Shown one piece after another: positions 9,394 to 43,149 of a DNA stretch of 43,515 bases. This DNA is from Elusimicrobiota bacterium. GTDB taxonomy: Bacteria; Elusimicrobiota; Elusimicrobia; UBA1565; UBA9628. A model generated the notes under the pieces. That model made no database searches. It was not told where the DNA came from and saw only the letters and a list, made by a program, of their open reading frames with translations. The stretch spans positions 1-43,515 of the forward strand of contig DAHVNA010000001.1 in NCBI GenBank assembly GCA_027319565.1. Direction: 5' to 3'. Within the stretch, counting starts at the first letter, position 1; each line of letters starts with the position of its first letter. Both the position numbers and the translations under genes were made by a program.

Positions 9394-9461
9394 AGTATAT
9401 CACGAGTCGCGAAAATGGACATGGGCCAAAAGGCCTAGATGATTTCCGGCAAAGGCCCCAG
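9394..9461 (-). promoter_or_regulatory. Box-associated promoter 1: extended -10 TGaTATACT plus GGCC boxes
   Basis: -10 at 9394-9399. Box ATGGGCC-AAAA-GGCCTAG 9421-9438 and second copy TTCCGGC-AAAG-GCCCCAG 9444-9461. Confidence 0.75.
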
Positions 9462-9494
9462 ACGTGCTTAGGCCTTTTTTAGAAATTGTTTCTA

Positions 9495-9523
9495 TTGACA
9501 ATGTAAGAAACGGGGGGTAAACT
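9495..9523 (+). promoter_or_regulatory. Near-consensus sigma70 promoter
   Basis: TTGACA(9495-9500)-17 nt-TAAACT(9518-9523), followed by GGAGG RBS before ATG 9562. Confidence 0.8.
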
Positions 9524-9561
9524 GTGGAAGGCGTCGTAAAAGTCTTTTGGGAGGGCAGAGG

Positions 9562-11196
9562 ATGTCGCTTTTTGGCGTTAATTGGCGGCGAGCCGTCTTG
9601 ATTCTAGTTTTTCTTTCCATGTTCGTCGTGCGCTTGGCGGCGGCTGTCTCTAAGCCAGAGGAGCTCTCGGCTTGCTTAAAATCTTACCGCAATCCAGACT
9701 ATCAAGATGAGTGGGGATTGTCCTATCAAAGTTGGGAATCGGGTTGCCGAAAAGGCGAGCGGCCTAGGGAGATTTTAAATAAGGCGGAAAATAGTTTGAT
9801 CGCGTCTTGCGTGGGCGATGGAGTTCCGGTGGTCAAAGCGGGTTTGATGGATGTTATGGCCGTTAAGCGCTTGTGCTCGCGCGGCGTTTCAGGACGGAAG
9901 GAAATCTTAACGCTTGCCGGAAAAAGTTTGGGGTGGCAAAGGGGTCGCGGCATGAGCGTTCAAGCGAATGCGATCACATCCATAACCGGACGGGTCAATG
10001 GAACACTCAGGAAAGGAGGCCTTAACGCTCTTTATGGAGAGCACGGCCAAGGCGATGGTCTGAGCGTGAGTGTAGGCGCTTCTTCGCATAGGGGTACACC
10101 CCGTGCGGGTTTTAATATCCAAAGTCTTGCTTCCTCCGTTGTCGGCCTAATTCCACCATCGCCTAAAATTGCAAATACGGTTCGCGAGCGATATCTCAAA
10201 ATTCTAATCGGGCATGTGGTCTCCAACGGCGCAAGCCCTGAAGCCGTGAAATATGCGAAGAAGATTCTGGGCGGGATGCTTTTGCATGTTCCCACTGAAA
10301 TTTTAGGACGGCTGGTTAAAAGAAACGATTATTTGTTCATTATCCCTCAAGGGAAAAAACTCACTCAGGTTTGGCCGCTTACAAGACTTGCCGGTAAAAA
10401 GACGTTTGACGGGCGTCTTTGGGACAATGTCAGAGGTATTTCGGGTGTCGCTTTTAAGGACAAAAAGGGCCGAAGCGGAGTGCTGTCAGCGGTAGCCGAG
10501 GAGAATTTGCTTGGATTAGGTGGTTATCGCAAGGGCTTTGTGCTTCTCCACGAGTATGGTCATATAGTGCGCTTGAGCGGCTTGATTCGCGAAAATGATT
10601 GGAAATGGAAGTGGAAGCAAACTCCACATAAGCGGCCTAGCCTTTATAACTCCAAAGGCCTTGAGGCGTCCGTCAGTTTGGGTGAAATGATTTTGAGAGT
10701 TCGTAATCTTCCTTCTAAAATTTTGGCGTCTTTTAAGGCGCCACGGGAATATATGCCCACTCGTGACTACTCAAAAGCCATTTACGACAGTGTGATGAGA
10801 AATAAGGGAACGCTCGGTCTAGGCGCTTATGCCGATTCAAATTCCGATGAAGCCTTTGCTCAGGCTACCGCGGCCTATTTTGGCGTGGGGTATAACGGAG
10901 AGGTCGCGGGAACGTTGCGGCGCAGAGACCCGCAGATGTATCGTCTAATGGAGAGGGTTTATGGCCGGGAAGGGGCGGATGAATTTCGCGAGCGGGGGAG
11001 TCGCGCTATATATGCAAAGACATTGTTAAATCTGGCTAAACACGAGAAAAAAAATTTCAGATGGCAGTACTTCGAGAGAGTTGTTATATTTGCCAGAGCG
11101 ATTGGCAACGATAAATTTATCGCAAAAATGTGCGGTGAGATGGGCGCTGAAAGATGCAAGAAATATTTTGGCGGTTCTACGCCAAAGGGATTTTAA
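9562..11196 (+). CDS. Secreted zinc metallopeptidase, anthrax lethal factor (ATLF)-like domain
   Basis: Signal peptide, Cys-containing N-domain, GRLWDNVRG, AEENLL, HEYGH, YADSNSDEAFAQ, LRRRDPQMY. Confidence 0.7.
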   Translation: MSLFGVNWRRAVLILVFLSMFVVRLAAAVSKPEELSACLKSYRNPDYQDEWGLSYQSWESGCRKGERPREILNKAENSLIASCVGDGVPVVKAGLMDVMAVKRLCSRGVSGRKEILTLAGKSLGWQRGRGMSVQANAITSITGRVNGTLRKGGLNALYGEHGQGDGLSVSVGASSHRGTPRAGFNIQSLASSVVGLIPPSPKIANTVRERYLKILIGHVVSNGASPEAVKYAKKILGGMLLHVPTEILGRLVKRNDYLFIIPQGKKLTQVWPLTRLAGKKTFDGRLWDNVRGISGVAFKDKKGRSGVLSAVAEENLLGLGGYRKGFVLLHEYGHIVRLSGLIRENDWKWKWKQTPHKRPSLYNSKGLEASVSLGEMILRVRNLPSKILASFKAPREYMPTRDYSKAIYDSVMRNKGTLGLGAYADSNSDEAFAQATAAYFGVGYNGEVAGTLRRRDPQMYRLMERVYGREGADEFRERGSRAIYAKTLLNLAKHEKKNFRWQYFERVVIFARAIGNDKFIAKMCGEMGAERCKKYFGGSTPKGF

Positions 11197-11552
11197 TGAA
11201 GGGATATTTCTTGGTTTTACGGATTATTGCACTCGGGTTGTTGTGGACGCTCTACGCTTGCGGCCCGGATTCCGCGCAGAAAGGCCATAAGGGAGTTCGC
11301 GCGGTTCCGACGTGGTCGGTCTATAATAAGATGGGGGAGGAGGTTTTGAGAGTCAAGGATACTCCAGGGCCGCTTATCAGCGCCGCCATTCCGCCTCCTG
11401 ATTCGCCGCCGGTATTAAATCCATTTCTCAGCGCGACGGCTCTTGAACCCACAGAGGAAGACGCCCTTCACGCCATTCTTGAGAAGTCACGAAGCTTCAA
11501 TGAATTTATTCAGAATCTAAAAAAGAGCGGCTATTCCGTAGTCCAAAGATAA
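11196..11552 (+). CDS. Hypothetical lipoprotein
   Basis: TAATG overlap with the upstream stop. MKGYFLVLRIIALGLLWTLYA-C lipobox-like signal. Confidence 0.7.
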   Translation: MKGYFLVLRIIALGLLWTLYACGPDSAQKGHKGVRAVPTWSVYNKMGEEVLRVKDTPGPLISAAIPPPDSPPVLNPFLSATALEPTEEDALHAILEKSRSFNEFIQNLKKSGYSVVQR

Positions 11553-11789: not shown

Positions 11790-12527
11790 TTACGAACCCT
11801 TAGCCGCGGCTCTTCTTCGATCGTTGTCGACTGAGGTTTTATAGGCGGCGATCATCACGATTAAGCGGGAGTCGACGGCGCGGGCGTCCTGAACTCTCAC
11901 CGTCCATTTGTCCACGAAAACATTCAGCCAGGGCCGACGCAGTTCGGCGATGAGGCCGCCGTCTTTCCTTCGCAAGACGACGTCCGTGGATATCCATTCC
12001 GTTTTTCTCGACTTCGCAATTTCGCGGTCATGGGCGTCCAAAATGGAATAAACCGTGTAGACCTTTAAGAGGGATTTAAAGACGTTTTCCTTGATAGAGC
12101 CTATCTTTTGGCCTTGGCAGTTCGCGACATCAATTCGCGTCCCCCAGGAAAAGAATCGGGCGCGGGCCTTGGCCGCGCATCGGCCCGAGGAGTCGTCATA
12201 GAGGAAAGATTTCGTCAGGCTGAAAAACTTTTCCGTCAGGGTTCCCAGCTTTTGATTCCCGGCTTTTAGATCGAAGGTGTCTGTGAGAGAAAAAAATCTC
12301 TCGCGGATCGTGAACTGATTGGGCAAAGGCGGGGCGACATTCGGCGAAGAGGCCGGAAAACCCACGAGGACGGGCTTTGGGACCGGGCTTGCCGCCTCGG
12401 CGGATATCCCGTAGGCTGCGGCGGAATTTTTGAGGGTTTGAAACGCCCCGAGGCCTTTTGACCAAGCGGGGAGCGCCAGAAAAACGGCACAGGCTGACGC
12501 GGCGATTTTTTTTATCGTCGAGTTCAT
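11790..12527 (-). CDS. Secreted LURP-one-related / Tubby-C scramblase-like protein
   Basis: Signal peptide, Pro-rich linker, repeated (R/K)FFSL/W beta-hairpins (IRERFFSLTDTF, EKFFSLTKSF), terminal helix DSRLIVMIAA. Confidence 0.75.
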   Translation of the reverse strand: MNSTIKKIAASACAVFLALPAWSKGLGAFQTLKNSAAAYGISAEAASPVPKPVLVGFPASSPNVAPPLPNQFTIRERFFSLTDTFDLKAGNQKLGTLTEKFFSLTKSFLYDDSSGRCAAKARARFFSWGTRIDVANCQGQKIGSIKENVFKSLLKVYTVYSILDAHDREIAKSRKTEWISTDVVLRRKDGGLIAELRRPWLNVFVDKWTVRVQDARAVDSRLIVMIAAYKTSVDNDRRRAAAKGS

Positions 12528-13504
12528 TTCTTGTAGATCACGAACGGAGCTTCGTCTTCGGCCCAGGCCTCTCCTGAGTTATTGAGACTTCTTAATATTT
12601 TTAAGTATCCGCCGTTGGCGGGGTCCATTAAATCCGGCGACAAGGGTTTTTTGACGGCGATGACGTGGATGGTTCCCATGGCCGTTGATTGCCCTGTGGG
12701 GATTTGGGCCAAAAGTTCAAGGCCGCTCGCCAGTGTTTGGGCGTCCGGGTAGGTCCAGGATTCTCCCGCCGATAATTTTTGGGGGGCGGCGGACAAGTCC
12801 GAAGGGGAAAGAAGTGTCGCCTGCCATTGAGGACCGACGTCGTAAATATAGACGAAGCAGTTTTGAGAGCAAAAAACCCGCGCTTTCATGGAGTCGTTTT
12901 CCACGAAATGAGAGCGCGAAAGGCTTAAGCGCACGCTCAAATCATTTTGCGTTTTGCGCACCGGCGCCACGCAGGCCCGTATTTCGGCTCTATAAAGGCA
13001 AGCGGAGCAGTTGGGCGCGTCCTGATAGCCCTCGGATACGATTTTTTCCTTAAAAATTCGGCCTCTTCGGCTAATGCGCAGGACATTCTCGACCAGACGT
13101 TGATCGGAGGGGCGGACGTCTCCTTTTGATTCGCTGTGCTGAATGCTGAGATATCTCGAGTTGACGTTGACACCGAGAAACTCTTCGACCGCCCCAAGTC
13201 TCGCGCGGCCCAAGGCTTCGCTGCGGACTTGCTCGCGCGTGTTTTCTTCTCCCACGGGGATTAGGGCTGAGCTTTCAACCCAGGTGCAGCCGGAAGAGTC
13301 TCCTTTTAATATCCGCGCGCGGGAGAGGGTCGTAGGATTTCTTCGTGACTTGCGCATCCTTGACAGAGCCGCGTGGGCTAAAGTTTCCGCTTTGGCTCCG
13401 GCATTCGTGAAACTGCCAGCGCTGTCCATATTCTGTCCCCGGATGTTCGCCGCGGGCACAAGACCGATGAGCGCTGCGAGAGCGAAAAATCGCAATTGAT
13501 TCAT
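12524..13504 (-). CDS. Secreted protein, FlgT/LPP20-like N-domain plus DUF4384 domain
   Basis: Signal peptide, REQVRSEALGRARLGAVEEFLGVNV, C-terminal RVFCSQNCFVYIYDV..ATLLSP. Confidence 0.6.
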   Translation of the reverse strand: MNQLRFFALAALIGLVPAANIRGQNMDSAGSFTNAGAKAETLAHAALSRMRKSRRNPTTLSRARILKGDSSGCTWVESSALIPVGEENTREQVRSEALGRARLGAVEEFLGVNVNSRYLSIQHSESKGDVRPSDQRLVENVLRISRRGRIFKEKIVSEGYQDAPNCSACLYRAEIRACVAPVRKTQNDLSVRLSLSRSHFVENDSMKARVFCSQNCFVYIYDVGPQWQATLLSPSDLSAAPQKLSAGESWTYPDAQTLASGLELLAQIPTGQSTAMGTIHVIAVKKPLSPDLMDPANGGYLKILRSLNNSGEAWAEDEAPFVIYKK

Positions 13505-13527
13505 AAATTTAATCCTCCCCCATCTCC

Positions 13528-14211
13528 TTAATCATGGATTTTTTTGAAGAAATAACAGCGGTATCCCCAGTGATGAGATGTGTCTCGCTCTTTCTCAAGG
13601 ATATATCCATTCGCTTTTGAGAAATGGTCTTCGTCCGCAGAGGAATCTTTTAGAACTTCGCCAGATTTGATTTCCTGGGATATCTGACTTTGAATAGATT
13701 CGTCATTAATATTATTTTCCAAGAAGCTATCAACGTTGGGGTAGCTGTCGAGATTGTTGCCTTTGGAGTCTGATAAATTACTGAAAGCAACTATGTTTAC
13801 CCGGAAAATCGCCGGAGTTTCATCGCTAAACAGCGGCCCGTTGTCGGCACTGGATGCGGCGATTGGCCCGCCAACGAGCAACTCGCGTATCGGAATATTA
13901 GGCTTGTCTTTTTCGTAACAACGCCCGATGAACGCTCCCGTCATGTCTTCTCTGGACACGGGAACGCCTTGACTGAAAAGCTTGTCCAGTTTCGCGTAGG
14001 CGGTTTGCGAGTAGTCGAACTTACTCTTTTGAGGCATTGATTTTTTTATTTCCGGCTTGTGCTTTAAGACGAAGTTATGAATATCCGAAGTCGCTTGAGT
14101 GAGGGCTTGGCTTCCACTGCCCCATGTTCGCTCGGAGCTTTGCGCCAAGGCGGAAAAAGACGACAACGCAACCAAAGCCGCCGCTATTAAGGCCAACTTG
14201 AGATTTTCCAT
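13528..14211 (-). CDS. Secreted hypothetical protein
   Basis: GGAGG RBS 7 nt before ATG 14211, signal peptide ending ALA, paired Cys (GRCY / YRCYFF). Confidence 0.7.
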   Translation of the reverse strand: MENLKLALIAAALVALSSFSALAQSSERTWGSGSQALTQATSDIHNFVLKHKPEIKKSMPQKSKFDYSQTAYAKLDKLFSQGVPVSREDMTGAFIGRCYEKDKPNIPIRELLVGGPIAASSADNGPLFSDETPAIFRVNIVAFSNLSDSKGNNLDSYPNVDSFLENNINDESIQSQISQEIKSGEVLKDSSADEDHFSKANGYILEKERDTSHHWGYRCYFFKKIHD

Positions 14212-14260
14212 TTTCATTCCTCCATCCTCTATATTCATCGTTTTCATCGAACGATAACTT

Positions 14261-14403
14261 ATGATACCACGCCCTCAAAAATTCCGCATGGGCCCAAAGG
14301 CCCAGAAGAGTTCCGAAAAAAGGCCTAGGGGGCGGCCGGCAAAAGACCCAGACCCAGTCTAGGCCTTTGGGCCCTGTTGCGGCCCTCTTTTTTGTCCTAC
14401 TAT
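14261..14403. promoter_or_regulatory. Divergent box-associated promoters 2 and 3 with four phased GGCC boxes
   Basis: Minus-strand -10 TGgTATCAT (14261-69). Boxes at 14288-14305, 14311-14328, 14334-14351 and 14359-14376. Plus-strand -10 TACTAT at 14398-14403. Confidence 0.78.
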
Positions 14404-14409
14404 GAGGAT

Positions 14410-15588
14410 ATGATTAAGCTAATCCTTCTTATAAGGCTCTTGAGCTTTAATTTGCATGCCCTCAACCGAGACGAGGCTTCTTCCCAATTTCAGGAACCTG
14501 TTCCAGTCAATATCAATGTTTCTATCCCCGCGCTTGACGTCAATCAAGGCCAAGATTTAAACGCGGCCCTTCAAGAAGACGATACCGCGATTTCCAAAGA
14601 AAAAATTCTCGCCCCCGAAGAGGTTTTCCCGCAAAAAGACTTGCCGCTGGCTTTGTCCGCCCAACCGGCGGAGAATTTGCCTGCGTCTTTGGGAGCTATA
14701 AGCGGAAATGAGGGAAAGCCTCAAGCCCTTCAGAGTGGGCAAGAAGAAGGGCGCGCTCAAATTCATTCAAAAGCCTGGAAGAGGCTCAAGTCTTTTGCGT
14801 CAAAGTTTTTAAAGCGCGGTATTCGCCAAGAGTCTTCATCTTTGTGGGATGGAGATAGCTTTAAAGGGGAACGGGAGGGGCAATCCGGTTCTCTCTTGGC
14901 CCGGGGGCCGCCCACGGTTATCGAGGTTCATAACGCCGGAGAAGTCGCCCAGGCGATTCCTAATAACAACGCGGCGCTGGAGCATTTCCGCGAACAGTTG
15001 ATGGAGGCTTTTTGGAATGGAAAAATTCATTCCATTAAGGTTTATCGCTATCCCGGCGGCAACGGCGGCGAGATTATCACGGTTGACGTCTCTCATTCTC
15101 CAGCCTTGGTCGAAATTTTGCCGGATTTATTGCCCCATGAAAGAAGGCTTTTGGAATCGCTTTTGAAGTCCGGCGCGAGCCAATTGCAGGTCGTTCTCAT
15201 TGAAGGCGGGGTTCGAGAACAATCAACTCCGGATCTGGTTTTAGACGGGAGAATGGCGGAGATGAAATCGGTTCATTCCCTATCGAGCTTTCCTCTCTTT
15301 TTAAATAAAGCCAATTCCCAGATTTATAAACACGCCGAAAGACATGGCCTAGGGTTGGGGACGGTGGTTATCAATTTGACCGATGAGGAGCGCGTGCCCG
15401 TTTTGGAGATTTTAAAAGCCATTCAGTCTTGGCGAGAAATTCCGGAGGGAGATAAGGTGGCCTCGCCGTATCAAGGCAAGCATCCCAACGTAAAACATCC
15501 CTTGGCGGTGGACCGCATCGAGGTTTTCGCCCGCCAGGAACATCGGGTTTTTGTCCGGGGAACGGACGGAAATTTTAGAGTTCTCTAA
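14410..15588 (+). CDS. Secreted protein with C-terminal CdiA-type PD-(D/E)xK nuclease-like domain
   Basis: Signal peptide MIKLILLIRLLSFNLHA, low-complexity linker, TPDLVLDGRMAEMKS..LNKANSQ..VVINL. Confidence 0.6.
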   Translation: MIKLILLIRLLSFNLHALNRDEASSQFQEPVPVNINVSIPALDVNQGQDLNAALQEDDTAISKEKILAPEEVFPQKDLPLALSAQPAENLPASLGAISGNEGKPQALQSGQEEGRAQIHSKAWKRLKSFASKFLKRGIRQESSSLWDGDSFKGEREGQSGSLLARGPPTVIEVHNAGEVAQAIPNNNAALEHFREQLMEAFWNGKIHSIKVYRYPGGNGGEIITVDVSHSPALVEILPDLLPHERRLLESLLKSGASQLQVVLIEGGVREQSTPDLVLDGRMAEMKSVHSLSSFPLFLNKANSQIYKHAERHGLGLGTVVINLTDEERVPVLEILKAIQSWREIPEGDKVASPYQGKHPNVKHPLAVDRIEVFARQEHRVFVRGTDGNFRVL

Positions 15589-18024: not shown

Positions 18025-19323
18025 ATGTCTCAAGACAGTGTAATGGTTTCATCCGGGTCCGTGAGACTTCCACCAGGAGTAATGCTGGAGGAAGGCGCGC
18101 TCTTGGAATTTTTTAAATCCTTCGTCTATCGCGAGGAGGGGACTTTTTTGCCCGGGGCGCGTAGTCGATGGGGCGCCTCAGATTTAAATATTTCAGTCTT
18201 TACCAATGAATTTTGGACTTCTAGACAACGGCAGGCTTCTTCTATCCACGAACTTTCATATCGCGCCTGCTTTAAGCCTCAATTGCCGCGTTTTTTTATC
18301 GAGCTTTTGACTAAGCGAGGAGACACGGTTTATGATCCGTTCCTTGGGCGCGGCACTACGGCGATTGAGGCGGCGCTTTTGGGACGAGTTCCCATTGGAA
18401 ACGACATCAACCCGCTCAGTCAAATTTTGACTTGGCCAAGGTTGCGCATTCCATCTTTAGAAAAAATTTCTCGGCGTTTAGATGAAATCCCTTTGTTGAA
18501 AAAACGTCAGGCGACAATCGATTTGTCGATGTTTTATCATCCGGACACGGAAGCGGAAATCGTATCGCTAAAAAATTATTTGGCGCAACGATTGGCGGAA
18601 GGCAAGGAAGATGACGTTGACCGCTGGATCCGTATGGTGGCGACTAACCGCTTAACTGGGCATTCCAGGGGATTTTTCTCGGTTTACACCTTACCACCCA
18701 ATCAGGCGGCCTCCCAGAAAGATCAGATGCGTATCAATGAAAAAAGAGGGCAAAAGCCGGAATATCGGGATGTAAAAGCGATTATCCTTAAAAAAACCAA
18801 GAGCCTGTTAAAAGACTTGACGCCCCTGCAAATTGAGGCGCTGGACATTTCTTCTCGGTCCGCTTTATTTCTTGCCAACGATGCGGCAAGAGTTCCGGAA
18901 ATTGAATCAGGGTCCGTGCAGTTGACGGTCACATCCCCGCCGTTTCTGGACATCGTCGAATATTCAAAAGATAATTGGCTACGCTCTTGGTTCAACGAGA
19001 TTGATGCGGGTCTTGTCGCCTCAAAAATAACGATGTCTAAGACAGTGAAAGAGTGGGCTCATGAAATGGAAAACGTTTTCCACGAGTTATACCGGATTAC
19101 GGCTAAAGGCGGCTATGTCGCCTTTGAGGTTGGAGAGGTGCGCAAAGGGAAAGTTAAGCTTGAGGATTGTGTTGTTCCATTGGGCCTCGCCGCCGGTTTT
19201 CATTGTATTGCGATCATGGTTAACGAGCAGCGGTTTACCAAGACGTCGAATATTTGGGGCATAAGTAATAACGCTTCCGGGACTAACACAAATCGTATCG
19301 TTATTTTTCGCAAAATGGCTTAA
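18025..19323 (+). CDS. Site-specific DNA methyltransferase, N4-cytosine type
   Basis: Motif I DPFLGRGTT precedes motif IV TSPPF. Start could be TTG 18001. Confidence 0.85.
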   Translation: MSQDSVMVSSGSVRLPPGVMLEEGALLEFFKSFVYREEGTFLPGARSRWGASDLNISVFTNEFWTSRQRQASSIHELSYRACFKPQLPRFFIELLTKRGDTVYDPFLGRGTTAIEAALLGRVPIGNDINPLSQILTWPRLRIPSLEKISRRLDEIPLLKKRQATIDLSMFYHPDTEAEIVSLKNYLAQRLAEGKEDDVDRWIRMVATNRLTGHSRGFFSVYTLPPNQAASQKDQMRINEKRGQKPEYRDVKAIILKKTKSLLKDLTPLQIEALDISSRSALFLANDAARVPEIESGSVQLTVTSPPFLDIVEYSKDNWLRSWFNEIDAGLVASKITMSKTVKEWAHEMENVFHELYRITAKGGYVAFEVGEVRKGKVKLEDCVVPLGLAAGFHCIAIMVNEQRFTKTSNIWGISNNASGTNTNRIVIFRKMA

Positions 19324-19327
19324 GAGA

Positions 19328-20011
19328 ATGGGTTATCCAGAAGCGTCGGGAGAAGAAAGTCTTGTCTATGACATCGTTTATGTCAAGCGGCTTGAATCCG
19401 CCGTTAGGCAGATGATTGAGCCGTTAAGAAATGTTCCATTTAGACTCGTGATTGAGTCTTTGTCCGGGCATAAAATTGTTCCCTTCAACCGGAAGGATAA
19501 AAAAGATCAGCGTCTTCTTGATCTGCTCAAAGAAACAGCGAAGGTCGCTACTAAAAATATTAATAAAACTGGTATCCGTAAACGCGTCAATGAGGTTGGG
19601 AATGCCGTGGAGCCCTTCGTTGAGGATGCGCTCAATTCGCTGAAAGCGGTTGCGAACAAACCAAAAGTTCGCGGGAAAACAAAAGCGGCTGGATATCCGG
19701 ACTTGGAATTTCTTGATCTTGATGGACGCTTGAATTATCTTGAATGTAAGACCTTTAGCGAAAAGACCAAAGCGACCACGCAACGCTCATTTTATCTTTC
19801 TCCATCTGAAGATTTTAAGGTCACGCAGGATGCTCGTCACTTCGTTTTATCATTGGAAATGTCTCAGGATGGGCGCAATATCCATCGCTGTAAAGGCTGG
19901 AAAATCGTATCATTAGAAAATCTAGTGGTTGACGTAAAGCATGAGTTTAATTCGGATAATAAGAGGCTTTATGCGTCAGAGCTTGTGCTGGATCAAGGAG
20001 TTGTTTCCTGA
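19328..20011 (+). CDS. Putative Type II restriction endonuclease
   Basis: NEVGN, GYPD..YLECK PD-(D/E)xK motif. Lies 4 nt downstream of the MTase. Confidence 0.7.
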   Translation: MGYPEASGEESLVYDIVYVKRLESAVRQMIEPLRNVPFRLVIESLSGHKIVPFNRKDKKDQRLLDLLKETAKVATKNINKTGIRKRVNEVGNAVEPFVEDALNSLKAVANKPKVRGKTKAAGYPDLEFLDLDGRLNYLECKTFSEKTKATTQRSFYLSPSEDFKVTQDARHFVLSLEMSQDGRNIHRCKGWKIVSLENLVVDVKHEFNSDNKRLYASELVLDQGVVS

Positions 20012-20029: not shown

Positions 20030-20818
20030 ATGGCCAAATTAAAGCAAGAGTTGATCATTGATCAGCAGGGGCCAATTGGAATTTTGACTTTAAACCGTCC
20101 CGAGGCTTTAAACGCTTTAAGTCATCCTCTGATGGACCAAATGGAAGAGGCGTTGAAAAATTTTGAGGCTGACGCCGCTATTCGCGTGGTCGTCATTGCG
20201 GGATCTGAGAGAGCTTTCGCCGCGGGCGCGGATATTTCGGAAATGCAGGGAAAAACGAGCGCCGAAATGCGTGCGGATTTACATTTATCTCGCTGGGACA
20301 AGGTGTCCAATTTCCTCAAGCCGACGATCGCGGCGATCAGCGGATACGCTTTAGGCGGCGGATGTGAATTGGCTTTAGCCTGCGATTTAAGAGTCGCTTC
20401 GGAAACCGCGGTTTTCGGTCAGCCCGAAATTTCAATCGGGGTCATTCCCGGAGCGGGGGGAACCGTGCGACTGGCGAGACTCTTGGGGCGGGCGTTGGCT
20501 TTGGAGATGGTTTTAACCGGGCGCAGAATATCGGCCCATGAGGCGTTGAATTTGGGAATGGTCAACCGCGTGGTTCCGGTGGAACTGTTTTTGGATGAGG
20601 CGATCAAATTGGCGCATCAGATTGCCGCCATGCCGCCGCTTGCGGTCGCGGCGGCCAAAAAATCCGTTCTTTCGGCCTTGAGCCCGGATTATCCGTCTTA
20701 TCCCGCCGCCCTTCAATTAGAGCGGGAGCTTTTTTATTCGCTGTTTGACACCGAAGATCAAAAGGAAGGAATGCGCGCGTTTATCGAAAAACGCAAACCC
20801 AACTTTAAAGGAAAATAA
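20030..20818 (+). CDS. paaF: Enoyl-CoA hydratase (PaaF-like)
   Basis: LNRPEALNAL, AFAAGADI, GGGCELA, FGQPE, EGMRAFIEKR. Confidence 0.8.
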   Translation: MAKLKQELIIDQQGPIGILTLNRPEALNALSHPLMDQMEEALKNFEADAAIRVVVIAGSERAFAAGADISEMQGKTSAEMRADLHLSRWDKVSNFLKPTIAAISGYALGGGCELALACDLRVASETAVFGQPEISIGVIPGAGGTVRLARLLGRALALEMVLTGRRISAHEALNLGMVNRVVPVELFLDEAIKLAHQIAAMPPLAVAAAKKSVLSALSPDYPSYPAALQLERELFYSLFDTEDQKEGMRAFIEKRKPNFKGK

Positions 20819-20819
20819 A

Positions 20820-21623
20820 ATGGCCGAAGCCCTTCAAACACGACCGCTTCTCGTCGAAATAAACGGCGCCGTGATGACTCTGACCTTAAACCGTCCCAAT
20901 GTTCTCAATGCGCTCACTCTTGAAATGATGAAGGGGCTTTTAGAGGCTCTTAAAAAGGCGGAAAAAGACAAAAATATCGGTTGCGTAATTTTAACGGCCT
21001 CAGGCCGCGCTTTTTGTGCCGGCGCCGATCTGGGTGATCTTAAAAAACGGCAAGAGGAGGCTCCGTTTTCTTTAGGCGATGAATTGCGGCGTCATTTTAA
21101 TCCGCTGATTCTTCAAATTCGCCGCATGGAAAAACCCGTGATCGGGGCCGTCAACGGCCTTGCCGCTGGAGCCGGAGCGAGCTTGATTCTATCGACCGAT
21201 CTCAAAATCGCGAGCCGGGATGCGAAATTTATCAACGCCTTTTCGCGCGTGGGTCTTGTCCCCGATTCCGGCATGACTTATTTTATGCCCCGCTTTCTTG
21301 GAATGTCTTTGGCCCTTGAATACGCCTGGACGGCTAAGCCCATTACGGCGGAAGAGGCTTTTCGCTTTGGCTGGGTCAATCGTCTTGCGGATCCCGGACA
21401 AGTCATGGATGAGGCGCGGAAATTGGCTCAAGAGCTGATTGCGGCCCCGCCCTTGGCTATTGCCTTGACCAAGCGCGCGATGAACCGCTCTTTTGAAAAC
21501 AACTTAGAGACGCAGATGGAATACGAGGCGCAGCTTCAAGAGGTGTTGGGAAAAACGCATGATCACGCGGAAGGAGTCGCTGCATTTCTTGAAAAAAGAA
21601 AGCCGCGCTTTGAGGGAAGATAG
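20820..21623 (+). CDS. paaG: Enoyl-CoA hydratase/isomerase (PaaG-like)
   Basis: AFCAGADL, AAGAGASL, AFSRVGLVPDSG. Adjacent to paaF-like and paaA-like genes. Confidence 0.75.
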   Translation: MAEALQTRPLLVEINGAVMTLTLNRPNVLNALTLEMMKGLLEALKKAEKDKNIGCVILTASGRAFCAGADLGDLKKRQEEAPFSLGDELRRHFNPLILQIRRMEKPVIGAVNGLAAGAGASLILSTDLKIASRDAKFINAFSRVGLVPDSGMTYFMPRFLGMSLALEYAWTAKPITAEEAFRFGWVNRLADPGQVMDEARKLAQELIAAPPLAIALTKRAMNRSFENNLETQMEYEAQLQEVLGKTHDHAEGVAAFLEKRKPRFEGR

Positions 21624-21631
21624 GAGGGCTT

Positions 21632-22459
21632 ATGCCAAAAGAACCTGAGCGAATCAAAGAAGAAAAACTTCACGAGAAATTAAAATCCGGCGGAAAAGTC
21701 GAGACCCTTGAAGAAATGACAGAGGAGTATCGGGAAAATCTCACGCATCTCATGATGATGCAGGCCGATTCGGAACTGGCCGGCGCGTTTGGTTATGTCC
21801 CGTGGATTATGAAATCTCCGGACATTAAAGAAACTCTGCAGGTGTCTCAAATTGTCAAAGACGAGGTTCGTCACGCTCGGGTGATGTACCGGCTTCTGGA
21901 AGGGATGGGGCTTGACGTGGAAGAGTATTACAAAAAACATAATTTCAATTTGCGGGTGAAAGATGAGGACATCGGGACTCAGCGCGTGTCCGATGACAAA
22001 CGCGTCAACATCTTCTATTATCCGATTGAAACCTGGTATGACTTCATCATGTTCAATTTTTGCATGGACCGGGGCGCCGGACACCAACTTGAAGACGCGC
22101 TCGATTGCTCCTACAAGCCTTGGTGCGACGTGATGGACGGCATCTTCAAAGAAGAAGGCATGCACATGGCGCATGGGGATCAGTGGACCGAAAAACTCGC
22201 CAAAGATGATAAAACCCATGACGATCTCCAAAAGGCTTTGGACAAATGGTATCCGCGCACGATGAATATTTTCGGGCGCGCGGGATCTCCGAGAAACGAA
22301 ACCTACCGCAAGCTCGGGCTCAAAAAACGGGGAAACGACGAGGTCCGGCAGTCTTTCGCCGCCGATGTGAAGGATAAGTGCGCGAAATTTGGCCTCAAGG
22401 TTCCCGATTGGAAGCCCGAAATCTCGAAGATGACCGAAGAGCCGTTTATTCCGGGGTGA
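21632..22459 (+). CDS. paaA: Divergent phenylacetyl-CoA epoxidase subunit A-like di-iron protein
   Basis: Ferritin-like ligands DSELAG, DEVRH, DRGA, KEEGMH. IFYYP and NDEVRQSF motifs resemble PaaA. Confidence 0.7.
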   Translation: MPKEPERIKEEKLHEKLKSGGKVETLEEMTEEYRENLTHLMMMQADSELAGAFGYVPWIMKSPDIKETLQVSQIVKDEVRHARVMYRLLEGMGLDVEEYYKKHNFNLRVKDEDIGTQRVSDDKRVNIFYYPIETWYDFIMFNFCMDRGAGHQLEDALDCSYKPWCDVMDGIFKEEGMHMAHGDQWTEKLAKDDKTHDDLQKALDKWYPRTMNIFGRAGSPRNETYRKLGLKKRGNDEVRQSFAADVKDKCAKFGLKVPDWKPEISKMTEEPFIPG

Positions 22460-22484
22460 CTTGGACGCAGCCTTTATTCCTTGA

Positions 22485-23564
22485 ATGATTAAGAAGGTCG
22501 GCGTTTTGGGGGCGGGGACGATGGGTTCGGGTATCGCCCAGCTGTGCCTTCAACGCGGATTTCCGGTGTTAATCTATGACGCGGTTCCGGAGGCTCTGTG
22601 TTCCGCCGCCGGAAAAATTCGCCAGAATCTTGAAAACGCCGCCGCTAAAAATAGAATCACGTCGGAGGCGCTTCAGTTTGCGATTCAAAACGTCATTTAC
22701 GCCAAGGATCTTAAAGAGTTTGTGGGGCTGGACCTCGTCATTGAGGCCGTGACTGAAGACCTTGCCATTAAAAAAAACATTTTAGCTCAGGTTGAAGAAA
22801 TTTGTCCCCAGGCGATTTTGGCGACCAATACCTCTTCTTTTCTTGTTTCAAACGTGGGAGAAGAACTGAAAGACCCGGGCCGATTTCTGGGGCTCCATTT
22901 TTTTAATCCACCGGTCGCGATGAAACTCGTCGAGATGATTCGCGCCCCGAAAACGGACGCCGCTATTTTCGAGGAAGCAAAAAAATTTATTGATGAATCT
23001 CTTCAAAAAACGGCGGTGGCGGTCAAAGACACTCCCGGCTTTATCGTCAATCGCGTCATGCGGCCTTATTACTTGGAGTCTCAGCGCGCGGTTTTGGCCG
23101 GAGCCGGTATTTCAGAGCTAGATTCCGCTGCCCGGGAAATTGGGAAAGTTCCGATGGGGCCTTTTGAACTCATGGATTTAATCGGCTTGGATGTTAATCT
23201 CGCCATTACTAAAACGATCTATGAGGCGTTTAAGCGACCCGAGAGGTTTAAGCCGCAACCCATTCAAGAGCATTTAGTCTCCTTGGGACATAACGGGCGA
23301 AAATCGGGGCAAGGGTTTTATCTCTACCAAGACGGAAAATGTGTTGGCGAAAATCCGGAGGTGGCAGTCGTCGCGGCGGGAGATGGAGATTTGTCGGATT
23401 TAGAAGCGTGGGAGTGCGTGATAAATGCGGTTACTCAAGAGGCGGAATTGGCCTTTAAAGAAGGAGTTGCGACGAAAGAAGATATCGATCGGGCGATCAC
23501 TCTCGCGATGAATTTCCCGCGCGGGCCATTTTCATGGAAAAACGAAAGCGCAAAGCCAAACTAA
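22485..23564 (+). CDS. paaH: 3-hydroxyacyl-CoA dehydrogenase (PaaH-like)
   Basis: GAGTMGSGIA, EAVTE, ATNTSS, GLHFFNP, PGFIVNR, PMGPFELMDLIGLD. Confidence 0.85.
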   Translation: MIKKVGVLGAGTMGSGIAQLCLQRGFPVLIYDAVPEALCSAAGKIRQNLENAAAKNRITSEALQFAIQNVIYAKDLKEFVGLDLVIEAVTEDLAIKKNILAQVEEICPQAILATNTSSFLVSNVGEELKDPGRFLGLHFFNPPVAMKLVEMIRAPKTDAAIFEEAKKFIDESLQKTAVAVKDTPGFIVNRVMRPYYLESQRAVLAGAGISELDSAAREIGKVPMGPFELMDLIGLDVNLAITKTIYEAFKRPERFKPQPIQEHLVSLGHNGRKSGQGFYLYQDGKCVGENPEVAVVAAGDGDLSDLEAWECVINAVTQEAELAFKEGVATKEDIDRAITLAMNFPRGPFSWKNESAKPN

Positions 23565-33656: not shown

Positions 33657-35684
33657 GTGTCCTTAAACGAATCTTCTTTATCATGGGAGTCTCAATGGAA
33701 AGAATTTCTTCGGGGAGTTTCTCTTTTTAAAGATTTAAAGGATGAGGACTTTGAAAAGATCATTTCCAAAATCCAGTTGGCTTCTCTTACAAGAGGCTCT
33801 GTACTTTTCCGCCAAGGAGATGATTCCCCGGGCCTTTTTATTATCACCTCCGGCCGCGTCCGGGTAGTATATCGAAGGGTGAATCAGGAAAGTGTCGAAG
33901 TCATCTTGGGCCGAGGCGATTGCCTTGGAGAAAGCGGAATCATATTAGAGGAAAAATGCGTCGCGACAGTGCACGCTTTAACCAGCTGCGAATTTCTGGG
34001 GATTTCCCGCGAAGATTTTTCTGAGACGCTTAAGGAACATCCGGAAATAGCCCTTCGGCTTTCCCAGGTTCTCGCGCGCCATGTCCTTCAAACGAGCGCC
34101 TCCCGCTCGAATTTGGGGCAGTGCCAGGCTAAATTTTTCACGATTTCCTCATCACTGCCTTTCCCGGAGCGGCAGTTCTTTTCCGCTTATCTGGGGCTTC
34201 AGCTTCAGGAACAGACTCGGAGCCGTGTTCTAGTTGTTGACATGGATGAAAAATTTGGAGAATTAGCGCCCTTATTTCAAACCCAGCCTCCGGAGATCGA
34301 TCGTGAATTTGTTCGCAAGCTCAATCGCCGGGAGGGGGCATGGTTTAAGACCTTTATCCGCCGCGGAGCTTTTGGAGTGGATATTCTCAGCGTTCCCGCC
34401 AATCGATTGGCTAAGGAATCGATGCAGGATATTCCAATCTTTTTGAATTTAATTCGCGAAAATTACGATATCGTGCTCATCCATTTGGGCAATGTCTTGG
34501 GGCCCCATGAACAGCGAGTTCTCATGGAAGCCGAGCGCGTCATTTTAGTCGGTTCTGAAAAAGGGCGGGAAGAATATTTACGGCTTGATGAAAAGATGGT
34601 TTCAAGCGTTGATCCGTCCCAAATTTTGCGCTTATGGTGCGGAGATTCAAGGCCTCCAAGCGTCTTTGGGGATGCTTGGAAATGGCGTGTTCCGTGGAAT
34701 CCTGCGATTTCAGAACTCATCTCGTCTTCAGAGCCGCTTTTGAAATTTTCCCAGTTGCATTCATCCTCTTGCCGGGTTATCGAAAGATTGGCCAGACATC
34801 TGACCGGTTTTAGCGTTGGAGTCGCTTTCGGTTCGGGGGCGGCGTTGGGATATTCGATTATCGGGGTTTTGAAAGTCTTTAAGCGCGAAAAAATTCCTAT
34901 CGATCTTGTCTCCGGAACGTCAATGGGTGCTTTCTTGGCGGGTTTGGTAGCCATGGGAATGGAACCCGAAGAGCTGGAACGGGGCGCATTTAAAGCCAAC
35001 CGGAAATGGATTTATGGGCACATCTTAAGAGATCTCTCTATTCCCCATTCCGGTTTCTTTTCGGGGCAATCGCTGATCAGGATTTTTGGGGAGTATTTTC
35101 AAGGCAAAACCTTTGAGGACTTGGAGCTTCCTTTTTCAGCTGTCGCTTCGGATATCGAAAGCGGAGAAGAAGTCGTTTTGTCGAAAGGCTCAGTGACGGA
35201 AGCGACTCGCGCAAGTTGCAGCCTGCCCGTTATTTTTACTCCTTTTCACCGCGAAGGGCGATTTTTAATTGATGGCGGCTTGGTCAACCCCGTTCCTATT
35301 CGGGTCGTTGCGGATATGGGGGCCGACATCTTAATTGCCATTAATTTAACCCTGCCGGCGGCGGACTACACCTCGGGCGCAAAACCTGGTTTTTTATCAT
35401 CGATATTTAAAGCCTTGGGAGGCGTCAAATATCCAAACGTTTTCCACACTCTTTTACACACGCTTTATACCGCGGAATATGAAATCGCTAAATCTCAATT
35501 AGGCATTGCGCATGTGATCATTCAGCCCGAAATCAAGGGCGTTTCCTGGACAGATTTCGGGCAGGCCAAGAGTCTGATTGCATTGGGAGAAATAGCCGCT
35601 GAAAAAGTCGTGCCTCAGATTAAAGCAATGCTTCCGGCTTTATCTCCCTATTGCCGATTGCCGAATCGTTCAGAGGCGATTTGA
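33657..35684 (+). CDS. cNMP-binding domain plus degenerate ParA/MinD-like domain plus patatin phospholipase
   Basis: LFRQGD..LFIITSGRV..GDCLGE; VLVVDMD / YDIVLI; GSGAALG, GTSMG, DGG. Confidence 0.85.
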   Translation: MSLNESSLSWESQWKEFLRGVSLFKDLKDEDFEKIISKIQLASLTRGSVLFRQGDDSPGLFIITSGRVRVVYRRVNQESVEVILGRGDCLGESGIILEEKCVATVHALTSCEFLGISREDFSETLKEHPEIALRLSQVLARHVLQTSASRSNLGQCQAKFFTISSSLPFPERQFFSAYLGLQLQEQTRSRVLVVDMDEKFGELAPLFQTQPPEIDREFVRKLNRREGAWFKTFIRRGAFGVDILSVPANRLAKESMQDIPIFLNLIRENYDIVLIHLGNVLGPHEQRVLMEAERVILVGSEKGREEYLRLDEKMVSSVDPSQILRLWCGDSRPPSVFGDAWKWRVPWNPAISELISSSEPLLKFSQLHSSSCRVIERLARHLTGFSVGVAFGSGAALGYSIIGVLKVFKREKIPIDLVSGTSMGAFLAGLVAMGMEPEELERGAFKANRKWIYGHILRDLSIPHSGFFSGQSLIRIFGEYFQGKTFEDLELPFSAVASDIESGEEVVLSKGSVTEATRASCSLPVIFTPFHREGRFLIDGGLVNPVPIRVVADMGADILIAINLTLPAADYTSGAKPGFLSSIFKALGGVKYPNVFHTLLHTLYTAEYEIAKSQLGIAHVIIQPEIKGVSWTDFGQAKSLIALGEIAAEKVVPQIKAMLPALSPYCRLPNRSEAI

Positions 35685-40297: not shown

Positions 40298-40306
40298 ATT
40301 ATAACA
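40298..40306 (-). promoter_or_regulatory. Extended -10 promoter for the DegT-GT4 operon
   Basis: TGtTATAAT, then a ~60-nt leader with an AAGGAG RBS. Confidence 0.55.
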
Positions 40307-40324
40307 TCTTGGACTGCCTGGCTT

Positions 40325-43015
40325 TTAGTCCGTGGTCTGTAAGACAAGATAGCGCGCGGCGGCCAGGCTCCATCTTCGGATGAGCTTGTTTTCCACGAGT
40401 TTATGGTTGAGATACAATCGCGTTTGATTTCTTTGCCCGCCTTTTCTCTTGGCGCTGAGCACAAATTCCACGGCGAGGTGCTTGGGTTTAATGAGGCGAA
40501 CGAGAACCTTCATCAGGTCTCCATAGGATAGGCCGTTTTTGTTTTCTCCAGAGATAAAATTGCGGATGTTTTGCGCTTGTCGATCGAGATTGAGTTTTGA
40601 TTTCTTGTGGGGATTTCCCAAATAAGGCAATTCATCGGCCAATTTTCGCATTTGCTCGAATTGATCTCTCACGGCGTGAAGATAGGATATGCGCCGAGTC
40701 TTTTCGGGGCTCGGCTTTCCGGGAGGATAGAGATCGCGGATTTCCCTGTTAAGGAGAGCTTCGGGCGTGAGGCCTTTTTTTGCGGCTCTGGCGGCGATGG
40801 ACAGAAGTTCTTGGCGATTGTCTTGGGCGTTTAAATACGAGGTAAAAACCAGACTCCGGGGAGCGCTTTTGATGTCTGAAATCGCGTTGCGGTCTAAAAC
40901 GACAGTCATGGCCGAAGAGCCGCCTTTATAAGCGTCTTTATCCCCTTTGGGAATCAATCCATTAAGCGGAAGCGCTAGTTTTTTCTCGCCGTAACTAGGG
41001 AAAAAAGAGCGAGCCAGTTTCGTTAAATGTTCCGGGGCTTTACTGTCTCTGGTTAAGCCCGAGTTTTGGGTATAGAGGATGACTGGAGAGGATGCGCGGC
41101 CTTTCTTGTCGTAGTAAAGAAAAGTGGAAACGCCCTCTTGGGAATCCTGCTCGAAGAGCGCTCCGAAATAAGGAAGACTTAATTCTCCGTTTTGATTTCC
41201 GTGCGAGGCGTCAAAAGCCTTAAACGTTCCACTGACTTTGAATGTCCCTCCGTTCGGATCGAAGATTTTCATTTGCTGATGGTCATGCGATGATTGGGCG
41301 GAGAAATTAAAAACGATGGGGATCGTGAAATTAATTGAACGGCTGATACCCACGCTTTCTTGGGTCCCCAGGAAGTTAACCGGGCTCTCAAGCTTCTTTG
41401 AGTTAGCAAGAGCGTTTTTAATGACGGATTTTTCCGTCAGCTTAAATGAGTTTTTTGCGGATTCCGTGTACATCTTCATGAGGGTTGAAAGCGTGCCTAA
41501 TTTTCCCCCGGTCGCGAGTTTTTGAAGCTCCAGCATTTGCTTGGGGTTCTCGGGATTAAGAATGAATTCAATCAGGGCTTGGTTCTCTCCGCTCCAGGAG
41601 ATGGAAACTCCAAGTTTAGTCGTGGTGTAACTAATGAGTTGGGTAATCCAAAGCTGGCTGAGGCCTTGCCCAACATTCCTTCCTCCGAGAGAATCTCCGA
41701 CCACCGGAACCTCTTGCGAGAATATGGCCGACAGCATCGGGCCGGCCATGCTTAATAGGGTTTGCCCCGAGGCGTTGAGGAGTTTGGCGTGGTTAAACCT
41801 TAGCCGAACTCGCAGATGGGTCTTGTCCAGGCGTCTTAAAGTCAGCCCGTAGCCTCCAGTTTGAGAATAGAGAAGATTAAGGCCCACGATCGCGGGGCCA
41901 AAAATGGGAGTGAGGCCTGGTCCCGCCGCGATTTGAATTTGAACGGGGAGTTTCCAGATTTCGCCAATTTCCATCTTCTCGATGCGTTTGGCTTTGAGCG
42001 GGAAAACGGTTTTGGCGTCAAAAGGGTTGAAGATGCGCAGTAGGCTGTTGCAGGCGCTGGCTTGGTTTAGCGGTAGAGGGCGAATGATGGTGGTATTAAG
42101 GCTCGTGTTCATTCCCAGGGTCAGGGTCAGTGGCGCTCCGCTAATCGTTGTGGGGACAAAGCCGTAGTGATATTCAGGCGAAGGCGTATAGGAATCTAAC
42201 ACCGCCAAGCGTCCGTTGGCATAAGGAAGAGCCAAGATGGCGCGGTGAATGGATCCGGATATCCCAAGATCGCCAACCCAGTAGGCCCCGGCTCCGTGGA
42301 GATCGAGTTTGCGGCAGGCCTTGCTAGTGTCTCCCACCTGATTATCCTGATTCATCAGCTGATCATTAAAAGTGATTTCGCTTTCATAGCTGGGGTCGTC
42401 TTCTGGGCTGATGTCGCCGTTGGCCGATTTTTCCCAATCGCTTCCTGGGATGGGAATAAAGCGCGGCGGCTTGGGGGCTGATTTTTTGGGCTGAGTGGGC
42501 TTTTGGGGCGGCGTTTGAGAACCGGGTTGAGGGGGTGTCGCGGTTGCGGTCAAAACAGGAGAGGGGTTTTGTTCGTTGTTGATTTCAAAAGACAGGGTTT
42601 GAAGATTCCCGGGCTTTGGCGTAGAATTTAAGCTCTGTGATTGCCTCTGGGCATTTCCCATATCGGCGGAATTTTTTGGGGAGAGAGAACTGGGGTTTGA
42701 GTTTTCTTCAAAAGCCGTTTGGGCGGTTGATAAAATACTACGGATGCGGACCTGGGTCTGGGCGAGAGACTGTTGGGATGAACGCTTTTCTGAAAACCTG
42801 ATTCCGCGCTTGCGTTTTTGCGGACAAATTCCATTGAGAACTTTATTTTGGTTTTTCACCGAAAGAGACAAGAACTCTTCAACTGAAAGGTGGCATTCTT
42901 TTGCGGCTTTCGCGATCGCTTTTGGTGAGGTGTTTTGCGCGGCCGCTGGAAAGGCCCATAGGATTATGCCGATCGCGGGCGCTAGTAACGCGGAAAAGCG
43001 CTTAGATTGATTCAA
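40325..43015 (-). CDS. Large secreted hypothetical protein
   Basis: 896 aa. Signal peptide ending AAA, Cys pair, S/P/Q/T-rich linker, ~650-aa beta-rich domain. Confidence 0.8.
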   Translation of the reverse strand: MNQSKRFSALLAPAIGIILWAFPAAAQNTSPKAIAKAAKECHLSVEEFLSLSVKNQNKVLNGICPQKRKRGIRFSEKRSSQQSLAQTQVRIRSILSTAQTAFEENSNPSSLSPKNSADMGNAQRQSQSLNSTPKPGNLQTLSFEINNEQNPSPVLTATATPPQPGSQTPPQKPTQPKKSAPKPPRFIPIPGSDWEKSANGDISPEDDPSYESEITFNDQLMNQDNQVGDTSKACRKLDLHGAGAYWVGDLGISGSIHRAILALPYANGRLAVLDSYTPSPEYHYGFVPTTISGAPLTLTLGMNTSLNTTIIRPLPLNQASACNSLLRIFNPFDAKTVFPLKAKRIEKMEIGEIWKLPVQIQIAAGPGLTPIFGPAIVGLNLLYSQTGGYGLTLRRLDKTHLRVRLRFNHAKLLNASGQTLLSMAGPMLSAIFSQEVPVVGDSLGGRNVGQGLSQLWITQLISYTTTKLGVSISWSGENQALIEFILNPENPKQMLELQKLATGGKLGTLSTLMKMYTESAKNSFKLTEKSVIKNALANSKKLESPVNFLGTQESVGISRSINFTIPIVFNFSAQSSHDHQQMKIFDPNGGTFKVSGTFKAFDASHGNQNGELSLPYFGALFEQDSQEGVSTFLYYDKKGRASSPVILYTQNSGLTRDSKAPEHLTKLARSFFPSYGEKKLALPLNGLIPKGDKDAYKGGSSAMTVVLDRNAISDIKSAPRSLVFTSYLNAQDNRQELLSIAARAAKKGLTPEALLNREIRDLYPPGKPSPEKTRRISYLHAVRDQFEQMRKLADELPYLGNPHKKSKLNLDRQAQNIRNFISGENKNGLSYGDLMKVLVRLIKPKHLAVEFVLSAKRKGGQRNQTRLYLNHKLVENKLIRRWSLAAARYLVLQTTD

Positions 43016-43081
43016 TTTTCCGTTCCCTGGTCGGATTCTTTATATTTGCCTGCTAAGACAGCATGTTTCATGTCTGAGTTT

Positions 43082-43149
43082 AGGATATCATGCGCTAGCG
43101 GTTTGCGCCTGGGTCCAAAGGCCTAGAAAAATTCCAGCAAAGGGCCCAG
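43082..43149 (-). promoter_or_regulatory. Box-associated promoter 4
   Basis: -10 TGaTATCCT (43082-90). Box CTGGGTC-CAAA-GGCCTAG 43109-43126 and second copy TTCCAGC-AAAG-GGCCCAG 43132-43149. Confidence 0.75.

Follow-up and report, generated by a model that had tools for sequence, protein, structure and literature searches.

An oriented 18-bp promoter box recurs across the class Elusimicrobia and is a likely target of a DosR/LiaR-type response regulator

The stretch of DNA analysed here, hereafter the window, is the 43,515-nt segment G000:C23:1-43515 of an Elusimicrobiota genome (G000; 2.03 Mb, 92% complete), and the element in question is an 18-bp box found at four of its promoters. The box recurs across the class Elusimicrobia, and in G000 it leads some 30-45 genes, most of which are predicted to encode exported proteins. 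On the basis of sequence comparisons, we consider it likely that the box is bound by a class-wide NarL/LuxR-family response regulator of the DosR/LiaR type, which would activate these promoters. The boxes of the window and the features that accompany them are as follows (scores in bits are from the position weight matrix, PWM, described below; gene and signal-peptide calls in G000 come from our own heuristic callers, which visibly miss true leaders and admit membrane anchors).

9421..9438, minus strand: primary (proximal) box, 32.1 bits
9444..9461, minus strand: secondary (distal) box, 23 bp upstream of the primary box, placed by its left half
9394..9399, minus strand: -10 hexamer TATACT with TGn, 21 nt from the box, read from the sequence
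8651..9355, minus strand: tyrosine/dual-specificity phosphatase-family protein (PF03162, PF13350) with a probable weak signal peptide
14288..14305, minus strand: primary box of the leftward promoter, 29.3 bits
14311..14328, minus strand: secondary box, 23 bp upstream, placed by its left half
14334..14351, minus strand: third box, of secondary type and common to the divergent promoters; in period 23, and 25 bp from the rightward box, where the distal site reads inverted
14261..14266, minus strand: -10 hexamer TATCAT with TGn, read from the sequence
13528..14217, minus strand: signal-peptide protein with no Pfam or NCBIfam family, first operon gene (the start given earlier, 14211, is the next in-frame ATG)
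12524..13504, minus strand: signal-peptide protein with DUF4384 (domain search), second operon gene
11790..12527, minus strand: probable signal-peptide protein with no family match, third operon gene (leader judged by eye; the heuristic missed it)
14359..14376, plus strand: primary box of the rightward promoter, 28.3 bits, centred at -42.5 from the ATG at 14410
14398..14403, plus strand: -10 hexamer TACTAT without TGn, followed 6 nt later by the ATG (leaderless), read from the sequence
14410..15588, plus strand: protein with a signal peptide, a Pro/Ser/Glu/Gln-rich leader, a WDG motif (residue ~146) and a C-terminal domain, read from the sequence
43109..43126, minus strand: primary box, 28.8 bits
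43132..43149, minus strand: secondary box, 23 bp upstream, placed by its left half
43082..43087, minus strand: -10 hexamer TATCCT with TGn, read from the sequence
40325..43015, minus strand: 896-residue signal-peptide protein with a TTG start and no family; box-led homologues are present in two other genomes of the genus

The four 18-mers of the original prediction are all present, each with a single mismatch to CTRGGCC-N4-GGCCYAG, as are the 21-nt gaps to the listed -10 hexamers, three of which are preceded by TGn. Likewise, there is no recognizable -35 element at any of the four, the corresponding positions reading ATGTCC, ATGCGG, TGTTGC and AGGCGC, and the box ahead of the ATG at 14410 spans -51 to -34, giving the centre of -42.5 that had been proposed. 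The description of the sites as a quasi-palindrome was right as to the sites but not as to the symmetry: the box is oriented, and a weaker second copy upstream had been overlooked, such that the region 14288-14376 constitutes a four-site array (14288, 14311, 14334 and 14359). The claim that every target in the window carries a signal peptide holds for most, the leader of the phosphatase being weak (hydrophobic, with no cleavage motif called). A fifth match, at 12449 (17.9 bits), is located inside coding sequence and has no -10. Taken alone, the window contains six matches at ≤3 mismatches against 4.29 expected, which is not above chance, and, therefore, the significance of the box comes from genome-wide evidence.

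The proteins of these loci are largely orphans. For the C-terminal domain of the 14410..15588 protein there is a CdiA_C-like lead only (Atlas score 0.93; PF18451 on 12% of cluster members), an Atlas search with the 896-residue protein gave nothing usable (0.78), and NCBIfam has no model for the orphan proteins of the window or for the FDG leader described below. Close to the 9421 box, a near-consensus promoter on the plus strand (9496-9524; TTGACA, 17 nt, TAAACT) faces away from it, its -35 lying 35 nt from the distal box, which is upstream; the gene behind it (9562-11196, plus strand) encodes a protein that has a signal peptide and an HEYGH zinc-metalloprotease-like motif and matches neither Pfam nor NCBIfam. 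At the 43109 promoter, a 19-codon open reading frame (43012-43071, minus strand; seen by eye) begins 10 nt past the -10, its stop codon overlapping the TTG with which the 896-residue gene starts; translational coupling is possible.

For the genome-wide search, the PWM was iterated on the 18-bp box alone, with the -10 information excluded. G000 contains 21 sites at ≤1 mismatch and 42 at ≤2 mismatches, and the PWM finds 64 matches at ≥15 bits and 59 at ≥17 bits; at the latter threshold, 20 column-permuted matrices gave a mean of 2.6 (maximum 7) and the reversed PWM gave 7. A -10 hexamer, defined in the genome-wide counts as TAnnnT, occurs at a spacer of 21 nt in 31 of the 59 strong sites, whereas the count for the other offsets is 26 of 1456 (binomial p 2e-38). 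All 31 of these sites lie outside called genes in a genome that is 92% coding, and 10 of the remaining 28 lie inside genes. The existence of a box family beyond the four window copies is thereby confirmed. A palindromic, multicopy element could also represent the ends or scars of miniature inverted-repeat transposable elements or insertion sequences, or a repeat of the repetitive extragenic palindromic type. We regard this as exceedingly improbable: the 21-nt spacers are unrelated (identity 0.29, with a mean of 0.16 bit per column; flank information averages ≤0.18 bit per column), which excludes a mobile repeat, the spacing to the -10 is fixed, and non-homologous genes in other families are preceded by the same geometry. 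The maximum spacer identity, 0.95, likely reflects a paralogous pair on C26 and C65, and Rfam returned no matches in the window and three loci.

On the gene strand, the consensus of the oriented box is CTAGGCCTTTTGGCCCAT. When the halves of the 31 promoter boxes are folded together (n = 62), both C7 and a purine at position 3 are invariant (62/62), whereas G4 and G5 are present in 61 and 59 half-sites, respectively. The second, weaker box, which was located by its left half alone, lies upstream in 18 of the 31 promoters, as opposed to 10 of 1000 random control positions, at a distance of 23 bp (15 cases) or 24 bp (three cases). In 14 of the 31, an ATG follows 6 nt past the -10; if the A of that ATG is taken as +1, the box spans -51 to -34 and ends 33 nt before this inferred start, and most box-led mRNA leaders would be very short or absent. 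Both the position of the box and the fixed spacing to the -10 support the earlier suggestion of a dimeric activator, putatively at a class II position.

Two other ways of reading this geometry need to be considered. Firstly, the last 2 bp of the box fall within the -35 hexamer, and the same regulator might thus act as a repressor that blocks RNA polymerase; moreover, many sites in family f4 continue CCCTTG, a partial -35, and at locus L019 the regulator gene has a -10-like hexamer upstream of the boxes. We judge repression to be improbable, however, given that the -35 region matches TTGACA at an average of just 2.3 of six positions, and that a rigid 21-nt spacing is expected of an activator-sigma contact and corresponds to the DosR geometry. 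Secondly, the original prediction drew an analogy with class II CRP/FNR promoters, for which the half-sites are TGTGA-N6-TCACA (CRP) and TTGAT-N4-ATCAA (FNR). The 5-N6-5 spacing is the same and the position similar, a dimeric activator would likewise adjoin the -35, and G000 encodes three CRP-family proteins. Nevertheless, the analogy fails at the level of the half-sites, to which the mean match is 4.8/10 for CRP, compared with 8.2/12 for Dev half-sites; the three proteins have ET-x-x-R helices, G000 has nine exact FNR-type boxes of its own, and CRP-family proteins do not track the box, the CRP-type helix-turn-helix exceeding the Pfam cut-off in one of five box-rich f4 genomes and in none of the other four. 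Binding by a CRP/FNR-family protein is, therefore, very improbable. A LytTR direct-repeat operator was also considered and ruled out, there being no matches to LytTR-domain proteins in the 92%-complete G000.

The box is much better matched by sites of the NarL family. Only two GerE-domain proteins are found in G000: both couple a receiver (REC) domain to GerE, they are 58% identical to one another and closest to LiaR/VraR/DevR, and their top sequence matches are PDB entries 5hev, 7ve6 and 4gvp. The alignment with DevR retains N167, K168, K179, T180, K182, N183, K191, R197 and T198, and both proteins have the base-reading K179, K182 and N183 of DosR. In this genome, G000:C56:26123-26866 is the best candidate, since it is the only paralogue that was found in G004, a genome with 21 box promoters; K179, K182 and N183 of DosR correspond to its K213, K216 and N217. 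Indeed, in a tree of 48 regulators (a quick IQ-TREE version, used only for the grouping of paralogues), the single copy of G004 groups with the C56 paralogue (support 100), whereas the C49 paralogue is a long-branched genus-level copy. In many family-f1 genomes (loci L006, L008, L018, L019, L020, L031, L033 and L034), a tRNA-like gene, its CAT anticodon on the opposite strand, adjoins the regulator on the upstream side, as judged by eye.

According to PMC3177182, Dev boxes of Mycobacterium tuberculosis are 18-bp motifs with C7 in all 47 sites, conserved G3-G5, and essential G5 and C7; the secondary boxes keep G4, C7 and G12, with two to four tandem boxes per promoter; the P and S boxes are centred at -42.5 and -63.5, with a period of 21 in tgs1; and in the seven mapped cases the distance from the end of the box to the start is always 33-34 nt (Table 1 therein). 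At hspX, PMC13486717 places DosR near -43.5, with K179, K182 and N183 as the base readers and with contacts to sigma region 4 and the C-terminal domain of the alpha subunit (alpha-CTD). The system described here shares with the DosR/DevR regulon the box length, G4, G5 and C7 in both halves, a primary box accompanied by degenerate secondary tandem boxes (two to four sites), divergent promoters that share an array, the regulator residues K179, T180, K182 and N183 and, if the A of the ATG is +1 here, the centre at -42.5 and the 33 nt to the start. The distal boxes of G000 keep G12 and C14 (15 of 18 each), much as the Dev secondary boxes retain G4, C7 and G12. The G000 consensus also fits that of LiaR, T(X)4C(X)4G(X)4A, as given in PMC4482077, and the LiaR/VraR envelope-stress regulators similarly combine a consensus with a secondary site. 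They differ in the helix (KT[VI]KN here vs KTVKT), in that the position here is class II, close to the promoter, in that the target set here is much larger and turns over fast, and in that no HisKA_3 kinase was found here. The motif had not been recognized from described regulons, but it resembles the DosR/LiaR-type NarL boxes. In Elusimicrobia themselves, a literature search that did not reach most subscription journals returned no paper on this motif or regulator, and neither was seen in passages of bioRxiv 10.1101/2023.11.21.568195.

The recognition helix and the box occur together. Among 161 genomes of the phylum, the box with its -10 was found in 55, DNA encoding the helix KT[VI]KNHLN in 71, and both in 54, whereas just one of the 90 helix-negative genomes has the box (G169, with a single match, at control level). 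Five helix-negative genomes inside the class have no box, and two of these encode other proteins of NarL type, whose helices differ. Among 41 relatives that form a separate set, the box was found in 40, and G014 passes a relaxed pattern (16 vs 3).

The gene neighbourhood of the regulator provides candidate partners. We read 20 regulator loci: a HAMP kinase and a receiver-kinase hybrid precede the regulator in 12, and the hybrid does so in 13. The linked kinase has the architecture dCache-HAMP-HisKA-HATPase, and pseudopilin-like genes lie behind the regulator block in 11 of the 20, with TadE over the cut-off in one and weak in two. In most of the relatives read, a Tad pilus locus ends with the dCache-HAMP kinase, the receiver-kinase hybrid and the regulator, in that order; in G104, the upstream genes are those for TadE, RcpC, a short secretin and a CpaE/F-type ATPase, two T2SSF genes and a TPR gene, and in G094 the genes for RcpC, secretin, ATPase and T2SSF follow one another likewise. 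In 52 of the 71 helix-positive genomes, the regulator gene shares a strand with rcpC and lies 13-18 kb downstream of it (on different contigs in 16, differing in one and without RcpC in two), although at least 34 of the 52 are from one family and hence kin. Against a dedicated link to Tad, RcpC is found in 133 of the 161 genomes, box-free lineages included; additionally, no box promoters were found in the Tad genes of G000.

In Pseudomonas, the two-component system PprA-PprB lies inside the Tad locus, as the regulator gene does here. Myxococcus Kil is a Tad-like killing apparatus (PMC8460266), of which KilC is described as short, as the secretin is here. The Tad cluster of G000 (C45, ~73-82 kb; L204), and those at L202 and L203, have a fused MinD-like/CpaF ATPase and a large FlgD_ig protein in front, and the secretin, at 247-254 residues, comprises little beyond the secretin domain.

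From these components, a mechanism can be proposed in which the periplasmic dCache kinase would sense a small molecule and phosphate would be relayed via the hybrid kinase to the regulator; the phosphorylated dimer would then bind the primary box through K213, K216 and N217, and cooperatively recruit a second dimer to the distal box. The proximal dimer might contact sigma region 4 and the alpha-CTD, replacing the missing -35. This would not be the DosR dormancy regulon itself, which was considered and rejected: G000 lacks a detectable HisKA_3 kinase, the candidate kinases are of dCache-HAMP-HisKA and REC-HisKA type and are not DosS/DosT, the regulator gene is linked to a Tad locus, and the targets are predicted exported hydrolases and orphans instead of dormancy genes.

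A number of observations weigh against assignment of the box to this regulator. The co-occurrence is backed by few independent lineages, and any class-wide protein would show the same pattern; 17 of the 71 helix-positive genomes have no exact match to the box with its -10; and G027, from the separate set of 41 relatives, has 30 such matches (control 4), yet the full-length regulator was not found there. G027 is 88% complete and a close orthologue of the hybrid kinase was not found either (best 35%), and it is plausible that the regulator was lost in an assembly gap. A HisKA_3 kinase, the usual partner of NarL-type regulators, was not found in G000 (92% complete), and in its genus the kinases, regulator and Tad genes are on different contigs (in G000, the kinases are at C23:143602-146627, as 143602-145482 and 145479-146627, with the regulator on C56, Tad on C45 and the pseudopilins on C67). 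Autoregulation was not found: no box lies upstream of either G000 regulator, nor in 20 further loci, whereas boxes lie just upstream of the regulator gene in four of 26 relatives' loci. Within the box itself, C occupies position 6 in 50 of the 62 half-sites, where Dev boxes have A, and the tandem period is 23-24 instead of 21. Finally, the right half of the distal box is not a random decay product of the primary but a conserved GCCGG form (G12 and C14 each in 15 of 18, G15 in 14 and G16 in 12), which could mean a second protein.

Accordingly, either a different class-wide DNA-binding protein might read the box, or the NarL regulator might read the primary box and a second protein the distal GCCGG-type box. 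Apart from G027 and the conserved distal right half, this is favoured by the frequent inversion of distal boxes in other families and by a second conserved LuxR-type protein in family f4; moreover, the transcription factors of G000 were surveyed by selected families. It would, however, reduce to coincidence the match to Dev/LiaR sites in sequence, length, position and tandem layout, together with the retained base-reading residues; the distal GCCGG form is also found in G004, where one regulator was found, and the f4 protein has no counterpart among the two GerE matches of G000. We consider this alternative distinctly unlikely and retain the DosR/LiaR-type regulator as the probable reader of the box.

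The targets of the box are predominantly, albeit not exclusively, exported. Signal-peptide genes account for 26 of 36 box-led operon leaders and 158 of 669 others (odds ratio 8.4, p 3e-9, with the heuristic caller), and about six of the ten box-led leaders not called secreted are true leaders by eye. The enrichment that had been anticipated is thus present; in contrast, the box does not define the full secretome, being found at only 19 of 120 secreted-type leader genes, and genes for PAS-GGDEF and stand-alone receiver proteins are box-led as well, such that secretion is not universal among the targets genome-wide. The box-led stand-alone receiver gene (G000:C89:45983-46429) has a near-identical promoter in all five other genomes of the genus and is a possible feedback element. 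We scanned 37 G000 proteins outside the window, of which 35 adjoin box sites, one is an operon partner and one a divergent neighbour. Among them are two SLT lytic transglycosylases, an Amidase_2 protein, peptidases of families M1, S8, C1, M48 and trypsin-PDZ, a GH15 protein, an MscS-domain protein, a YrbL-like kinase and three FtsH-like AAA+M41 proteins that carry signal peptides; 17 of the 37 have no family. The regulon thus contains FtsH-, HtpX- and trypsin-PDZ-type proteases, a further likeness to LiaR/VraR. The FtsH-like proteins (G000:C26:31261-34071, C65:427-3234 and C67:14935-17958), all box-led, have long N-terminal extensions, and one has two AAA domains. Two box sites first scored as geneless precede signal-peptide open reading frames, one of them encoding a Peptidase_C92 protein.

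In five genomes of three other families (f4, f5 and f8), an N-terminal hydrophobic leader is encoded behind 32 of 40 sites, with a cleavage motif as well in 25. The target families there are M15, Amidase_3, polysaccharide deacetylase, SNase, S11/beta-lactamase fold, M14, C1 and amylase, with 19 of 36 having no family; only two have any BLAST match in G000, both weak, and it follows that the promoter is conserved while the cargo turns over.

A subset of the box-led proteins share a leader. In 14 of 40 box-led proteins, a Pro/Ser/Glu/Gln-rich stretch is followed by the pattern [FWY]D[GR], located at residues 110-190, as it is in 12 of 255 other signal-peptide proteins (p 2e-7, an optimistic value, as the pattern was defined after viewing the same proteins). 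Semi-independent checks are provided by C111:38695, which was found through the FDG motif and is led by a weaker box, again 21 nt from a -10, and by C70:58, which is cut at a contig edge and has box-led homologues in G003 (87% identical) and G004. The leader also occurs in second genes of box-led operons, including that of a 4659-residue giant (G000:C56:31701-45680; L169), which has a signal peptide, an LFDG leader and no Pfam or NCBIfam match, and whose gene lies 3.3 kb from the candidate regulator gene on C56. In other genomes, the leader is found in nine of 23 targets of the genus (mostly orthologues), two of five from G014 and G027, and one of 31 from f4, f5 and f8; the last value indicates that it is lineage-restricted and not class-wide.

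As to biological role, wall hydrolases, nucleases, giants and the Tad link recall contact-dependent predators (PMC8460266); a resemblance to envelope-stress regulons comes from MscS and the proteases of FtsH, HtpX and trypsin-PDZ type; and amylases and aminopeptidases suggest scavenging. We tentatively place a contact or antagonism programme first, as a possibility, ahead of envelope stress, which seems somewhat unlikely, and the scavenging of macromolecules, which seems unlikely. A more specific version, which we regard as doubtful, is a contact-triggered attack programme of the class, in which the dCache kinase relay of the Tad locus would report contact with prey or host and fire a lineage-specific arsenal made up of proteases, hydrolases of the cell wall, giants and nuclease-like proteins; in the genus of G000, where a third carry it, the acidic/Pro-rich FDG leader would address ATP-dependent or cytoplasmic-type cargo (kinase, FtsH-like AAA proteases and phosphatase-type domains) into another cell. 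If so, these bacteria would be predators or antagonists that have gone unrecognized, and the promoter tag would allow their effectors to be listed from sequence alone.

We take the system to be real and of a known kind, with what is predicted to be an unusual class-wide secreted output. The switch itself is familiar, being DosR/LiaR-like, and it is the reach that matters: one box, spacing and helix are kept across most of a nearly uncultured class, whereas the targets are replaced almost wholesale between families and yet are mostly exported. In any such genome, therefore, the box can identify a co-regulated set of proteins that otherwise lack annotation. Moreover, the linked kinase pair offers a handle on the signal, and the lifestyle of free-living Elusimicrobia, be it predation, antagonism, scavenging or envelope repair, becomes addressable through the regulon of one regulator.

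Elsewhere in the window, three groups of plus-strand genes were noted by eye: a DNA methyltransferase-like gene followed by a nuclease-like gene, probably a restriction-modification pair (18082-20011); two enoyl-CoA hydratase genes, a PaaA-like gene and a 3-hydroxyacyl-CoA dehydrogenase gene, which make up a partial phenylacetate-type cluster (20030-23564); and, downstream of CheY- and CheC-like genes, a cyclic-nucleotide-binding-like N-terminus fused to a patatin-like domain (33657-35684).

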